Part shown: positions 7,118 through 11,259 of the stretch, piece by piece
Layout: every line of letters begins with the position of its first letter
How positions within the stretch are numbered: the first letter of the stretch is position 1
Origin: an uncultured bacterium
GTDB lineage: Bacteria; Patescibacteriota; Minisyncoccia; Phycocordibacterales; PALSA-1337
Direction of reading: 5' to 3'
NCBI GenBank assembly: GCA_903872035.1
Contig: CAIQIZ010000029.1
Location: 479-64,478, forward strand
DNA length: 64,000 bases
The notes under the pieces: model-generated
Seen by the model: only the letters and a program-made list of their open reading frames with translations
Databases searched by the model: none
Told to the model about the DNA's origin: nothing
Translations under genes and position numbers: made by a program

Positions 7118-8566
7118 TCATTCAATCTCTTTTGTCCCCTTCTGATATGACTTGAGCGGCAATCGATCCCAATTCGCTAAGATCGGAGTGACAAATTTCC
7201 AGGAAGCCATGATCTCTTCAGTCGAAGCGAATAACGTCTGATCGCCGATGAAAGCATCGTGTATGAGCCGTTCATAATCGTCGGGCAAATCCGCATACGA
7301 TGGCACATCGGCGTACTTGAATTTCAGCGTCTTGGCATCGATAGCAAACTCATAGCCCGGCTTCTTCAAGAAGAACTTGATCTTGATCCCCTCATCAGGC
7401 TGGATCCGGAAGGTCAGAATATTCTGACGCTCCGCAGCCGACACGGACGAACTTTGATCCTTTTCTAATTTTTTATCTAGAATTTTTAATTTCGATTTTT
7501 TAAAATAGACGTCGATTTCTGTTTTTGACTCGGCCATGGCCTTGCCACTTTCCAGATATATCGGCACTCCGCGCCATCTCGATGAACCGATACTGGCTTG
7601 GAGGCGGATATATGTTTCAGTCTTCGACTGGGGAGAGACTCCGGTTTCAGATCTGTAACCGTCATATTGGCCTTTGGCGGCAGTCTTTAATAGCTCCGAG
7701 GTCGAGATCCGACGAAGGGATTTCAAAACTTTGGCTCGCTCTCGACGGATATCATCCGCAGCGTATGAACGCGGCTCATCCATAGTGACCAAGGCCAGCA
7801 TCTGTAGAAGATGGTTCTGCCCAACGTCCTTGAGCGCGCCTATCCGATCATAGAAATCTCCACGGCTATGTACCCCCTCGCTTTCCATGAGCTTTATGTG
7901 GATCTTGTCGATATATTCCCTGCGCCACATCGGCTCGAATATCTGATTCATGAAGCGAAATGCCAAGATGTTCTGCAAAGCCTCCTTGGCTAGATAGTGA
8001 TCGATGCGGAAGATCTGCTTTTCTTCGAAGAGAACTTCCAAAAGCTTGTCCAACGATCGGGCGGTTTCGATATCATTACCAAAAGGCTTCTCGATAAGGA
8101 TCCGAGTCCAGCCAGAAAGATCGTCGCAAGGTACGGTCAATTTTGAGTGTGCCAAATTGTTCAGGATACCCTCATACATATTTGGCGGCACGGAGAGATG
8201 GAAAAGCTTGTTCGAACATTGACCCCAACGATCATCTATAGATCGTAGTCGCTCCGCCAAACGTTCGTAGGCCGGCATATTATCGAAGAATCCCTGCTCA
8301 TATGACATATGGTCAAGAAAATGCTTGATGTCCTCTTCGTGATACTTGCCAGGCTTCACGTTTAGATGCTCTCGAATGTAGTCACGGAATTCCTCACGGC
8401 TAAAAGACCGGCGCGAAAAGCCGATGATAGCAAAATTCGGTGGCAACATTCTCTTTGAATATAGAGCTAAAAGGGCTGGCAACAGTTTGCCAGAAGCGAG
8501 ATCACCGGTGATACCGAAGATGACGAATATAGTTGGATGCAAAGCTAAGGGCGAGGATGAATTCAT
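7118..8566 (-). CDS. zwf: Glucose-6-phosphate 1-dehydrogenase
   Basis: NAD(P)-binding 'IFGITGDLASGKLLPALLALY' and the G6PD signature 'RIDHYLAKE'. Confidence 0.9.
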   Translation of the reverse strand: MNSSSPLALHPTIFVIFGITGDLASGKLLPALLALYSKRMLPPNFAIIGFSRRSFSREEFRDYIREHLNVKPGKYHEEDIKHFLDHMSYEQGFFDNMPAYERLAERLRSIDDRWGQCSNKLFHLSVPPNMYEGILNNLAHSKLTVPCDDLSGWTRILIEKPFGNDIETARSLDKLLEVLFEEKQIFRIDHYLAKEALQNILAFRFMNQIFEPMWRREYIDKIHIKLMESEGVHSRGDFYDRIGALKDVGQNHLLQMLALVTMDEPRSYAADDIRRERAKVLKSLRRISTSELLKTAAKGQYDGYRSETGVSPQSKTETYIRLQASIGSSRWRGVPIYLESGKAMAESKTEIDVYFKKSKLKILDKKLEKDQSSSVSAAERQNILTFRIQPDEGIKIKFFLKKPGYEFAIDAKTLKFKYADVPSYADLPDDYERLIHDAFIGDQTLFASTEEIMASWKFVTPILANWDRLPLKSYQKGTKEIE

Positions 8567-8660: not shown

Positions 8661-8924
8661 CTACATTCCTTCCCCCCATTCCACCCATTTCGGATAGATC
8701 TCGCCAGCAACGAACACACAAGGCAGGACCACGATAGCCGTAAGCACCCAAAGGATAAAGGAGATGACTTTAGGTAGAATCTCAATGAATGCAGACCACA
8801 TCTCACCCCAGACTGCCAATAGGGAGCCCAGTATTTCCGTTAGTATATTTCCGCCTGATTCGTCCATATAATGGATACTAGCGCAGCTCATTATTCGGCG
8901 CAAGATGAGGTCAGATATCCACAT
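8661..8924 (-). CDS. Small membrane protein, hypothetical
   Basis: Hydrophobic 87-aa ORF. Low support. Confidence 0.25.
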   Translation of the reverse strand: MWISDLILRRIMSCASIHYMDESGGNILTEILGSLLAVWGEMWSAFIEILPKVISFILWVLTAIVVLPCVFVAGEIYPKWVEWGEGM

Positions 8925-8971
8925 TTTGTCAAATTTGGCTTAATGATAAGTGGTATACTATAGGCACATCC

Positions 8972-9160
8972 ATGGAAGAAGCATTGAATACGCCGATCCT
9001 TTCGGGTCAGCCTTTACCGAAGCATGAGCATCGTCGAATGATGATAGGATTCATCGCGATCGCTGTCATACTCATCATCGCAATTTTGGCAATTTATTAT
9101 TTTGCTTCGAGACCTTCATCAAACATATCCACCGCTCCAGTAGCTCAAAGACAGCCTTAG
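8972..9160 (+). CDS. Small single-pass membrane protein, hypothetical
   Basis: A 62-aa ORF with one transmembrane segment. Confidence 0.25.
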   Translation: MEEALNTPILSGQPLPKHEHRRMMIGFIAIAVILIIAILAIYYFASRPSSNISTAPVAQRQP

Positions 9161-9343
9161 AAAATAGAATTATTTCACTCGTGTGCACCCTGCAGGGCTC
9201 GGTCCCTACGGGACCGATACAGTCTTCGCATTTTCTCAGACTCGATATTCTCGTCCTCGAAAATATGCTCAGACTTTTCTCGCCCTTGACGCAAGTCGCA
9301 CATGCGACTTGCTCAGGGTGCACAAATTCGCTCTGCTCATTTG

Positions 9344-9417
9344 TGCACCCTGCAGGGCTCGAACCTGCGACCTCACCCGTGTGAAGGGTGCGCTCTAGCC
9401 AACTGAGCTAAGGGTGC
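9344..9417 (-). tRNA. tRNA-Val (anticodon CAC)
   Basis: Reverse complement folds as gcaccct-...-ttCACac-...-gcagg ttcgagc cctgc-agggtgc-a. No CCA encoded. Confidence 0.8.
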
Positions 9418-9462
9418 TCTTTACAAAAACGAAATCCGAATCTCGAAATACTAAACGATCGT

Positions 9463-9533
9463 TCGGGCTGCCGAGAATCGAACTCGGACCGCATCCACCC
9501 CATGGATGTATACTACCACTATACTACAGCCCG
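9463..9533 (-). tRNA. tRNA-Pro (anticodon GGG)
   Basis: Acceptor cgggctg/cagcccg, anticodon stem catcc/ggatg with loop atGGGgt, T-arm ccgag-ttcgatt-ctcgg. Confidence 0.75.
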
Positions 9534-9575
9534 CACTTACCATTTGAAACATACTACCACCATACTACAGCCCGG
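9534..9575 (-). repeat. Partial 5' copy of a tRNA-Pro-like gene abutting the intact tRNA-Pro(GGG)
   Basis: Minus-sense cgggctgtagtatggtggtagtat duplicates the first ~24 nt of the adjacent tRNA, then diverges. Confidence 0.6.
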
Positions 9576-9757
9576 TATCATCACCATCAAAGCGGCAGTT
9601 CGTATAGCTTACGATATTTTTGATAATTTCTCAATTTATGTTACCATTCTCACGTTACTGATTCGAGTTCGTATTTTTCGGGCCTAAACTAGCTTCGCTA
9701 AATTAGGCCCATCGCTCGAACGAAATGAATATGGTATATTCACTTCGCTTCTCGCTC

Positions 9758-9828
9758 GGGCCTATAGTAAAGCGGTATTACGCGTCCATGGCATGGACGA
9801 AGTCGGGGTCCGACTCCCCGTAGGTCCA
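9758..9828 (+). tRNA. tRNA-Ala (anticodon GGC), with an atypical T-loop UCCGACU
   Basis: G3:U70 alanine identity pair present. Anticodon loop atGGCat. C55 replaces the near-universal U55, so it may be a variant or a pseudogene. Confidence 0.6.
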
Positions 9829-9911
9829 CAAAAACAAGGAGCTCGCTTGCGAGCGACTATGTTTTTGTAGGATGTCGCCTGCAGGGCGGCGCCACATGCA
9901 GGAAGAATAGT

Positions 9912-9982
9912 CGGGGCGTAGTATAGTGGTAGTATACACGCTTCGGGTGCGTGAGGTCCGAGTTCGATTCTCGGCGCCCCGA
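9912..9982 (+). tRNA. tRNA-Pro (anticodon CGG)
   Basis: Acceptor cggggcg/cgccccg, anticodon loop ttCGGgt, T-arm ccgag-ttcgatt-ctcgg. Confidence 0.75.
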
Positions 9983-9988
9983 CAAGAT

Positions 9989-10059
9989 GGGCCTATAGTA
10001 AAGTGGTATTACGCGTCATTCGCATTGACGAAGCGGGAGTTCGATTCTCCCTAGGTCCA
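9989..10059 (+). tRNA. tRNA-Ala (anticodon CGC)
   Basis: Acceptor gggccta/taggtcc with G3:U70. Anticodon loop ttCGCat. T-loop ttcgatt. Confidence 0.75.
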
Positions 10060-10162
10060 CTGAAGATCTGCAGCCTTGTGCATAACTTCCCCGCTCACAA
10101 TTGACAATAATTTGCTATAATGGGGACGTCCATTTATTAATTATAAACATAATTTTAATATC

Positions 10163-10405
10163 ATGAAATCACTCCACGGAGTAGCATTTATTTTATTGAT
10201 TATCGGCGGTATCAATTGGCTTCTGGTTGGCCTTGGAATGTGGTTCGGCGGAAACTGGAATGTCGTCACTCTTATTCTCGGCGGTGTTCCATGGCTCGAA
10301 GCATTGGTTTATGTCCTGGTAGGCCTATCAGCCATCAAGCTTCTCATGTGTCACAAGAAGACTTGCAAGGAATGTGACAAGGGAGCCGCTCCGGCACAGA
10401 TGTAA
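10163..10405 (+). CDS. DUF378-family small membrane protein
   Basis: 'GGINWLLVGLGMWFGGNWNVVTLILGG' is the characteristic DUF378 double-transmembrane motif. A terminator follows. Confidence 0.65.
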   Translation: MKSLHGVAFILLIIGGINWLLVGLGMWFGGNWNVVTLILGGVPWLEALVYVLVGLSAIKLLMCHKKTCKECDKGAAPAQM

Positions 10406-10445
10406 TTCAGCAGAATTACCTACTGGGTAGTATTTGAAAAGTTTC

Positions 10446-10472
10446 GGATGAAAAAACCATCTCAAAACGAGG
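10446..10472 (+). terminator. Intrinsic terminator
   Basis: Hairpin accatctc-aaaac-gaggtggt followed by tttttt. Confidence 0.55.
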
Positions 10473-10533
10473 TGGTTTTTTCTATCAATGTACAACCATT
10501 CGTTTTTGGGTTATTATAGCCAAACCGTCAAAA

Positions 10534-10588
10534 GGGCCCGTAGCTCAATTGGTAGAGCGTCCCGATGCACATCGGGGAGGCAAGCGGT
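10534..10588 (+). pseudogene. 5' fragment of a tRNA-Ala-like gene, from the acceptor through the 5' strand of the T-stem
   Basis: The first 26 nt are identical to tRNA-Ala(UGC) at 10864. It has a different, irregular anticodon arm (tcccg-atgcacat-cgggg, an 8-nt loop). It shares aggcaagcggt, then runs straight into the GIY-YIG ORF. Confidence 0.6.
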
Positions 10589-10591
10589 ACT

Positions 10592-10855
10592 ATGTCTTTC
10601 GTATATATCTTACAGAGCAAAAAGACAGGCCGATACTACATAGGTAGCACAAATGATTTGTCGCGACGATTAGCGGAGCATAATTCAGACCAAACCAAAT
10701 CGCTCATCTACCAAAGGCCATTGGTTGTAGTATTCTCGAAAGAATACGGTAACTTGTCAGATGCGAGAAGGATAGAAAGGAAATTGAAGAAAATGAAAAG
10801 TCGGAGTATCATCGAGCACATAGTACACGACCAGGAGATCAAAGTTGTTTCATAA
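10592..10855 (+). CDS. Small stand-alone GIY-YIG nuclease (YazA/UPF0213-like)
   Basis: 'FVYILQSKKTGRYYIGSTNDLSRRLAEHN' is a textbook GIY-YIG motif. About 88 aa. Confidence 0.8.
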   Translation: MSFVYILQSKKTGRYYIGSTNDLSRRLAEHNSDQTKSLIYQRPLVVVFSKEYGNLSDARRIERKLKKMKSRSIIEHIVHDQEIKVVS

Positions 10856-10863
10856 CGTCATCA

Positions 10864-10939
10864 TGGGCCCGTAGCTCAATTGGTAGAGCGCCTCATTTGC
10901 AATGAGGAGGCAAGCGGTTCGAAACCGCTCGGGTCCACC
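10864..10939 (+). tRNA. tRNA-Ala (anticodon UGC), with CCA encoded
   Basis: Acceptor gggcccg/cgggtcc with G3:U70. Anticodon loop ttTGCaa. T-arm agcgg-ttcgaaa-ccgct. Confidence 0.85.
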
Positions 10940-11076
10940 ACTGGCAAAAATGCCGAGACTTGTTCTCGGTATTTTTGACAGTGAGGGGGCGGTCGGGAGT
11001 GGTTTCGAAGGACGGAGCGAGCGGAGGCGAGCGAGTCGGGGTCGCGGGCCGAGCCAGCAGGCGAGGACCCGTGACC

Positions 11077-11096
11077 GAAACCGCTCGGGTCCACCA
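11077..11096 (+). repeat. Direct repeat of the 3' 20 nt of tRNA-Ala(UGC), located 137 bp downstream of the gene
   Basis: gaaaccgctcgggtccacca occurs at 10920-10939 and again at 11077-11096. The segment between them is GC-rich and purine-rich with GCGAG-like repeats. Confidence 0.7.
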
Positions 11097-11259
11097 CAAG
11101 TCTCACTATTTCATGGCTTGACTAAGCGGTAATATCGTTGTCTTTAAATATGGCTTGCCTTTCTGCTAATACTGTGCTATACTATTAACAGTTTAAAACA
11201 CGGTAAACAACTGCCCTCTGTACCCTTTTAGGGAAGATGGCAAGAAAGGACCTTGTAAT

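Follow-up and report, generated by a model that had tools for sequence, protein, structure and literature searches.

The 3' end of the tRNA-Val gene in the 64 kb window (the whole stretch of DNA that was analysed) recurs a short distance downstream, raising the question of what lies between the two copies: the scar of an integration event, a small element that uses tRNA genes as its site, or a gene for a structured RNA. The host was placed by the neighbouring glucose-6-phosphate dehydrogenase (G6PD) within the Patescibacteria (Parcubacteria/Paceibacteria, near Taylorbacteria), and matching sequences for its lineage came from freshwater MAGs. The locus has a widespread gene order, in which an array of Ala-CGC, Pro-CGG, Ala-GGC, Pro-GGG and Val-CAC tRNA genes is followed by a small membrane protein and G6PD. 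Relatives were gathered with G6PD as the anchor, both from genome and metagenome scans (at most 71% amino-acid identity) and from protein databases; the latter relatives, at 75-81% identity and on short contigs, include one, assembled twice, whose contigs start within the element described below (L070 and L071) and one with an empty site (L069). The tRNA-Val region was recovered from three independent assemblies with the same sequence or a 1-base difference, and an assembly artefact was therefore excluded.

The tRNA-Val(CAC) gene is intact and does not encode CCA (9343/9344-9417, minus strand; ARAGORN, and Rfam tRNA model at 66.6 bits). The original prediction, made from the sequence alone, had described a 17-nt repeat of its 3' end at a spacing of 143 bp. 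The repeat itself was recovered, with corrected lengths: an exact 20-nt repeat (TGTGCACCCTGCAGGGCTCG, read on the plus strand) occupies 9182-9201 and 9342-9361, 160 nt from start to start with 140 nt between the copies. Both copies are in minus-strand sense, the proximal one (9342-9361) being identified by repeat and pattern searches as tRNA positions 56-73 plus 'CA', and the distal one (9182-9201) by repeat search and fold as the 3' strand of helices P3 and P1 and the putative downstream insertion boundary. In tRNA sense the repeat runs from C56 in the T-loop through the T-stem 3' strand and the acceptor 3' strand to the discriminator A73 and 'CA', which agrees with the attachment-site anatomy that had been proposed, and its start at C56 is also that of the tRNA-Ala(UGC) repeat elsewhere in the window. 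With up to 3 mismatches allowed, TGTGCACCCTGCAGGGCTCG matched the 64 kb window at these two copies alone and had no match in 100 dinucleotide-preserving shuffles; a chance origin of the 20-mer was ruled out, 0 matches being expected.

The spacer and the distal copy together form a multi-helix fold of ~145 nt. The minus strand from 9170 to 9420, comprising tRNA and insert, folded at -123.8 kcal/mol (z = -9.3), and the spacer with the distal copy alone gave z = -8.7. Coding potential in the 140 bp spacer was limited to short, non-conserved, spurious ORFs. Hairpins predicted for this region were found in place, namely one of 14 bp that folds onto the tRNA 3' end and incorporates it (cagggtgcacaaat/atttgtgcaccctg), gcaagtcgc-n4-gcgacttgc at 9291-9312 and ggtccc-gta-gggacc at 9201-9215. 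They are not incidental structures joining a scar. They belong, a point that the original prediction had missed, to a conserved, covarying family whose duplicated tRNA end serves as a strand of the structure by pairing with antisense segments inside the element.

Read along the minus strand, the fold begins with P0, a trailer hairpin of the form AAAU-GAGCAGAGCGA-AUUU seen in both sequence and fold (9324-9342); similar hairpins (A-run, GAGC..GCGA, T-run) precede the element in L019, L021 and L012. The P1 5' strand (GUGCACCCUG, 9314-9323) builds a pseudo-acceptor stem with the acceptor 3' strand of the distal copy or, alternatively, of the proximal copy, and corresponds to RNAalifold helix 1, with 4 of 9 pairs changed on both sides. 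P2 (9291-9312) is a hairpin with a perfect 9-bp stem and a 4-nt loop, followed by an invariant CGU (helix 2, 3/5 pairs compensatory). The P3 5' strand (AAGGGCGAG, 9279-9287) builds a pseudo-T stem by pairing with T-loop positions 56-60 and the T-stem 3' strand of the distal copy (helix 3, 5/8 compensatory). After the junction strand AAA (9276-9278) comes P4, a long conserved hairpin (9221-9275; helix 4, 10/17 compensatory) that consists, from base to tip, of a 5-bp AGNNU/ANNCU stem, a tandem GA/GA loop, GCAU/AUGC, an AU bulge, 4 bp, a second GA/GA loop, 4 bp and a variable tip. The junction strand GUAUC (9216-9220) leads into P5 (GGUCCC-GUA-GGGACC, 9201-9215), which together occupy 9201-9220 (helix 5, 5/7 compensatory); the GUA loop of P5 is invariant, and P5 abuts the distal tRNA copy without a linker.

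Beyond the distal copy, a 62-aa predicted membrane ORF (8972-9160, plus strand) converges on the element and fills extra room between that copy and the gene for the conserved small membrane protein. No equivalent space was found in relatives with or without the element, and the ORF had no significant Pfam match.

Homologues were found in at least five other Paceibacteria lineages, located after tRNA-Val or tRNA-Ala(UGC) or carrying a tRNA-Ser-like 3' half, so that the same kind of insert does occur at other tRNAs, as had been anticipated. When every tRNA of the fetched loci was screened by k-mers, two further sites with this architecture were identified, one after tRNA-Val in L019 (19-nt copy, offset 162) and one after tRNA-Ala(UGC) in L012, L027 and L033 (21-nt copy, offset 173). 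Motif searches identified three more: a tRNA-Val-type member in L020 that is truncated by the contig start, a tRNA-Val-type member in L070 and L071, whose contigs begin inside hairpin P5, and an orphan in L021 that lacks a tRNA and has a tRNA-Ser-like 3' half at its end. The downstream flank of the orphan resembles that of a tRNA-Ser gene 2.5 kb away. L070 and L071 are independent Logan assemblies (75% G6PD identity) that start at the same base inside P5, which suggests a branch of the assembly graph at that point, due either to several element copies or to a presence/absence polymorphism. Covariance model R1, derived from these sequences and run over ~650 kb comprising the window and related loci, returned the listed members and no further match, and counted one canonical copy in the 64 kb window.

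The members share one layout which, in tRNA sense from 5' to 3', comprises P0, the P1 5' strand, P2 (a perfect hairpin of 8-10 bp), an invariant CGU, the P3 5' strand, AAA, P4, GUAYY, P5 (6 bp with a GUA loop) and the tRNA 3'-half copy. At its end each element has an exact copy of a tRNA 3' half that begins in the T-loop and extends slightly beyond the discriminator; two upstream antisense segments pair with this copy to give an acceptor-stem/T-stem coaxial helix (P1 and P3). P1 copies the acceptor stem, and P3 copies the T stem lengthened by pairing of T-loop positions 56-60, so that the P4/P5 junction occupies the T-loop site; there, a conserved three-way junction of AAA, P4 with its two tandem G.A loops, GUAYY and P5 takes the place of the T-loop. 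Orientation is always that of the tRNA, with the element 19-45 nt after it. In all four cases that show both copies, the distal one matches the adjacent tRNA with 100% identity, and it follows lineage-specific tRNA substitutions (AGGGUGC in the window versus AGAGUGC in L019).

Covariation across the family was assessed on five distinct sequences, which align over ~145 nt. RNAalifold yielded 46 pairs with compensatory changes in 27 of them, and by explicit count (46 pairs, five sequences) 90.9% of alignment cells were paired. Shuffled alignments gave 12.6 +/- 2.4 pairs changed on both sides and none of 500 reached the observed 27, while control registers slid by 1-3 columns gave at most 8. P1 and P3 differ wholly in sequence among the Val, Ala and Ser-type members and yet keep their pairing; this covariation with tRNA type indicates selection on the internal antisense strands for complementarity to the tRNA half. 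These elements of ~145 nt are a previously uncatalogued family in the Paceibacteria (Patescibacteria/CPR), of which no prior description was found in the literature.

Comparison of relatives for presence or absence of the insertion, as the original prediction had proposed, revealed precise empty sites scattered over the host tree. Ten lineages carry a tRNA-Val without element or 3' copy (L069, L004, L074, L008, L009, L011, L022, L025, L079 and L080), and in six of them (L004, L008, L009, L011, L025 and L069) the tRNA runs directly into the membrane-protein gene. A neighbour-joining tree of G6PD shows the filled lineages dispersed and places the empty L069 as sister to the filled L070; a decayed remnant is present at tRNA-Val in L010 and L021. 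The junction expected for an empty tRNA-Val site is GGTTCGAGCCCTGCAGGGTGCACACGAGTGAAATAA, and that for a circle or tandem form is GGTCCCGTAGGGACCGAGCCCTGCAGGGTGCACAAATGAGCAGAGCG. Vertical conservation in all relatives together with absence from other tRNAs would have favoured structural trailers over mobile elements; what was found instead were the Ala(UGC) and Ser-like cases and the empty sites.

A search against Rfam 15 (E <= 1) with window positions 8800-11200 and with L012, L019, L020 and L021 returned tRNA genes and sub-threshold noise only. No recombinase, transposase or reverse transcriptase was found inside the unit. A recombinase acting in trans from within the window was sought among 20 integrase-sized ORFs and rejected, none of the 20 having a recombinase domain. 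The element had no blastn match among 50,697 phage records, and the tRNA-Val 18-mer had none in IMG/VR. A degenerate core pattern gave 25 IMG/VR matches, which were judged to be chance because none fits model R1. Two readings of the fold were also discarded: a hammerhead at the three-way junction, examined by eye, in which CUGAGCA lacks the essential G8 and no model matched, and a guide RNA of scaffold plus 3' guide (as in omega-RNA), in which the supposed guide is base-paired with covariation.

A second instance of the layout, divergent in sequence, is present in the window at tRNA-Ala(UGC), where repeat searches and the fold (z = -5.9) delimit a construct at 10920-11097 on the plus strand. 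In agreement with the predicted tRNA-Ala case, the gene (10865-10940) has an exact 22-nt 3' copy at 11076-11097; the repeat CGAAACCGCTCGGGTCCACCAC lies at 10920-10941 and 11076-11097 with an offset of 156 and starts at C56. The construct begins with the 3' half (10920-10941), continues through a terminator-like hairpin and a GC-rich spacer in which two inner hairpins form, and closes with the 22-nt copy. Its topology is that of the Val spacer, with a strong terminator-like P0, a closing helix that includes the 3' copy, and a last hairpin abutting the copy. Its spacer has no sequence similarity to the core of the Val element and is not detected by model R1; it is a relative that has diverged very far, or else a construct of like kind with an independent origin.

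Three like duplications had been reported within 2 kb, but the three are not of one kind. The copy at tRNA-Pro(GGG) exists, at 9551-9574 versus 9510-9533 with 23/24 positions identical, and is a 5' duplication of 24 nt lying 41 nt upstream of the gene. The 5' copy of tRNA-Ala is the conserved leader of a GIY-YIG gene, and the tRNA-Ala 3' spacer has its topology, not its sequence, in common with the tRNA-Val spacer. Short duplicated fragments of tRNA 5' ends, made up of the acceptor 5' strand and the D arm, occur upstream of the gene concerned with a 41-nt period, one before tRNA-Pro(GGG) (window 9551-9574) and two in tandem before tRNA-Val in L010 (67-140) and L021 (the equivalent region upstream of 4516).

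The GIY-YIG nuclease gene (10592-10855, plus strand; Pfam PF01541, E = 7e-14) is preceded by a tRNA-Ala-like 5' leader and followed by the real tRNA-Ala(UGC). In the leader (10534-10588) the acceptor 5' strand and the D arm are identical to those of the real tRNA, the palindrome TCCCGATGCACATCGGGG replaces the anticodon arm, and the sequence ends at T54. This layout and the palindrome are conserved in three other lineages (L007, L009 and L080). The gene resembles the type of T4 SegB, in that source's account of it a free-standing homing endonuclease in a tRNA cluster (PMC2330249). In L080, the real tRNA-Ala(UGC) is followed at ~7440-7605 (minus strand) by two pseudo-tRNA-Ala units of 81 nt in tandem. 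Each has the same palindromic 'anticodon arm' as the leader, has its T-loop interrupted by a palindromic hairpin of 18 nt (TTCCGATGTACGTCGGAA) and ends in GGGTCCACCA; the T-loop hairpins again point to the T-loop as a site of repeated insertion in this clade.

Two further features were observed around tRNA-Ala(GGC). A conserved motif after this gene (9830-9905, plus strand) starts with a hairpin of A-run, GAGCTCGCTTGCGAGCGA and T-run closely like the P0 of the L021 element, after which come TGTAGGATGTC, a hairpin and GCGCCACA. L008 and L025 have similar sequences downstream of tRNA-Ala(UGC), no Rfam match was found for the motif, and it may be another tRNA-trailer RNA motif. Upstream, 48 nt before the gene, is a 14-bp hairpin (GGGCCTAAACTAGC/GCTAAATTAGGCCC, 9680-9710, plus strand) whose first arm resembles the tRNA 5' end GGGCCTATAGTA.

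Among the explanations weighed, the one ranked first, with a probability of roughly 0.4, is a small non-coding insertion module for tRNA 3' halves that restores the tRNA end and whose fold is that of a single strand (RNA or ssDNA). With the same reserve, the segment from 9182 to 9341 (160 bp) may be regarded as one discrete non-coding insertion unit at the tRNA-Val 3' half. From the structure we infer the following steps. A miniature non-autonomous module would target the stretch of a tRNA gene between T-loop and 3' end, entering it or being copied into it, and would supply a replacement 3' half, so that the tRNA stays intact. The two identical 20-nt copies would serve at once as insertion boundaries (attL/attR-like) and as a structural strand. 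The element would act as a folded single strand, either as RNA co-transcribed with the tRNA or as ssDNA, in which the tRNA 3' half would be displayed as a duplex with the element's internal complement. Its loss would be easy, via recombination or slippage between the 20-nt repeats, and would leave precise empty sites.

Mobility is favoured by the att-core-like boundaries, the 100% identity of the copies, the occurrence at three tRNA types, the scattering of filled lineages and the remnants. Several points stand against it. No recombinase was found in the unit or among the 20 ORFs, neither an excised form nor its junction was observed, and no multicopy behaviour was seen in ~650 kb; the window's Val and Ala elements are dissimilar in sequence, so that recent spread within the genome is not indicated. 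A switch to a new tRNA would need a coordinated change of three segments, for which we know of no mechanism, and deletion between the 20-nt direct repeats can explain patchiness and precise empty sites without mobility. The idea of miniature elements that use tRNA 3' ends is viable and unproven, the att-like anatomy and the empty sites speaking for it and the missing integrase against it.

Almost as likely as the insertion module is a vertically inherited non-coding RNA gene derived from tRNA, that is, a remodelled tandem tRNA copy whose 3' half is kept identical by gene conversion. P2 would have replaced the D and anticodon arms and the P4/P5 junction the T-loop, the RNA would be co-transcribed with the tRNA and matured by tRNA-processing enzymes, and patchiness would result from repeated deletion between the 20-nt repeats. 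Consistent with such a gene are the strong covariation in local hairpins, the conserved unpaired motifs, and the constant orientation and position 19-45 nt after the tRNA. In L019 an A-run, GC hairpin and T-run directly follow the element and close a compact tRNA-element-terminator unit; this unit and the invariable tRNA-sense position speak in favour of RNA. P1 of L020 has a G.G mismatch, as expected if conversion overwrites the 3' strand before the 5' strand compensates, the L021 orphan without a tRNA fits an independent gene, and further tRNA-derived pseudo-copies exist in the clade, such as the tandem units of L080.

The same gene would, however, require several ancient paralogues or retargeting to account for a common core in Val, Ala and Ser-type frames, and at least eight independent precise losses. 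It would also have given up the T-loop, the main determinant of tRNA mimicry. The pairing itself is mostly Watson-Crick (207/230 pairs), with 6 G.U and 5 A.C; assignment of the strand from these last two counts was abandoned, 6 versus 5 being uninformative, and the pair statistics point to neither the active strand nor the type of molecule. The rarity of G.U pairs, no commoner than A.C, together with loops that are not typical RNA tetraloops and a terminator-like hairpin (P0) between tRNA and element, seen in L012 and at tRNA-Ala in the window, speaks against a simple RNA reading.

A further proposal, more doubtful than either of these readings, is that the family represents a new class of gene-less, self-folding CPR element that homes to tRNA genes, or a new RNA that mimics a tRNA half. 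In the homing form, sense and antisense copies of the tRNA 3' half would present the attachment site as a folded single strand and the tRNA would be regenerated; in the mimic form, the RNA would exploit tRNA-processing or tRNA-binding proteins.

It is improbable that the locus is instead a tRNA-Val with an intervening sequence of ~160 nt in its T-loop, in which the distal copy is the pairing partner of the tRNA 5' half, while the proximal copy and the spacer make up an intron-like domain that is either removed or tolerated. Minimum-free-energy folds of the three complete cases (window, L019 and L012) do take this swapped form, with the tRNA 5' half paired to the distal copy and the proximal copy to the antisense strands, and they are 8-10 kcal/mol more stable than a tRNA with a separate element. 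The swapped fold arises from the sense/antisense/sense arrangement and could be relevant to a switch or an intron-like reading. Yet a complete tRNA precedes the insert and folds first, so that splicing is unneeded and co-transcriptional folding favours the proximal cloverleaf. A test for a tRNA intron found the intact tRNA upstream and no match to an intron model, group I or other ribozyme in Rfam, and the distal copies of L019 and L020 have an A where C56 is universal. We know of no bacterial mechanism for splicing in the T-loop.

Integrase-mediated insertion into a tRNA gene classically leaves a direct repeat that spans the tRNA from its T-loop to its 3' end, and the repeat at tRNA-Val matches this footprint. 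A decayed scar, in which the attL and attR arms of a prophage or genomic island remain in tRNA-Val and the interior is lost, is nevertheless already contradicted by a 140-nt spacer that is conserved with compensatory changes in at least five lineages and at three tRNA types, as deletion remnants would not be, and by the absence of the tRNA-Val 18-mer from IMG/VR and of phage matches to the element. The recurrent integration and excision scars of the original prediction are likewise unlikely, because the spacer belongs to a conserved, covarying family that uses the tRNA end as a structural strand, and no integrase was found in the unit or among the 20 ORFs.

Several consequences follow. The Candidate Phyla Radiation, a group whose non-coding elements have hardly been explored, gains a structured nucleic-acid family supported by covariation, and the tRNA segment from the T-loop to the 3' end emerges as a recurrent target or template for tRNA-derived constructs in this clade. 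If mobile, the family would be a minimal element that encodes its specificity in the way it folds; if an RNA gene, it would be a new mimic of a tRNA half with a probable protein-binding hairpin (P4). Such inserts also create pseudo-tRNA ends and confuse the annotation of tRNAs and genomic islands, and possibly assembly, the contigs of L070 and L071 both starting inside the element.

In comparison with known systems, the element is like integrative elements in tRNA genes, and like CIMEs, which are integrase-less cis-mobilizable elements bounded by att sites, in having a direct repeat of the tRNA 3' part that extends from the T-loop to the tRNA end or slightly beyond, in the regeneration of the tRNA, and in the occurrence of filled and empty sites among relatives; as in CIMEs, a recombinase gene is absent from the interior. 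It is unlike them in having 140 bp between the repeats, no cargo and no cognate integrase identified, and in an interior that is a covarying fold with antisense copies of the att core. The integron attC and the forked hairpin of CTX-phi attP(+) are similar in size (~60-150 nt), in pairing between core and inverted copy that is conserved while sequence is poorly so, and in the dominance of Watson-Crick pairs without G.U bias. In contrast to these, the element is multibranched, has conserved unpaired motifs and is bound to tRNA genes, its boundary identity is 20 nt versus ~7 nt, and no IntI or Xer link was shown.

Similarities to the tRNA-like domain of tmRNA, the YrlA Y RNA, mascRNA and viral tRNA-like structures include an acceptor-like stem that is stacked on a T-stem-like helix and ends in a discriminator, and the context of tRNA transcription. 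The acceptor-like P1 and the T-stem-like P3 are supported by covariation, but T-loop positions 56-60 are paired, and the junction takes the place of positions 54-55. The element differs from these RNAs in lacking T-loop/D-loop mimicry and an analogue of the anticodon arm and in having no Rfam model match, and its Ala-type member (L012) is without G3:U70. With bacterial MITEs and palindromic elements (Correia, RPE and REP/BIME) it has in common that it is small, non-coding, highly paired, patchy in distribution and co-transcribable with its neighbours. Unlike these, it has no simple terminal-inverted-repeat hairpin, its specificity is for tRNA 3' halves, and it is bounded by a 20-nt tRNA-derived repeat, far longer than a target-site duplication (2-10 bp in MITEs). 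Judged by terminal inverted repeats and target-site duplication it is not a MITE, and where MITEs have many copies per genome, model R1 finds it once in the 64 kb window. Given these mixed likenesses, the element is best filed at the intersection of these kinds, as a member of none of them.
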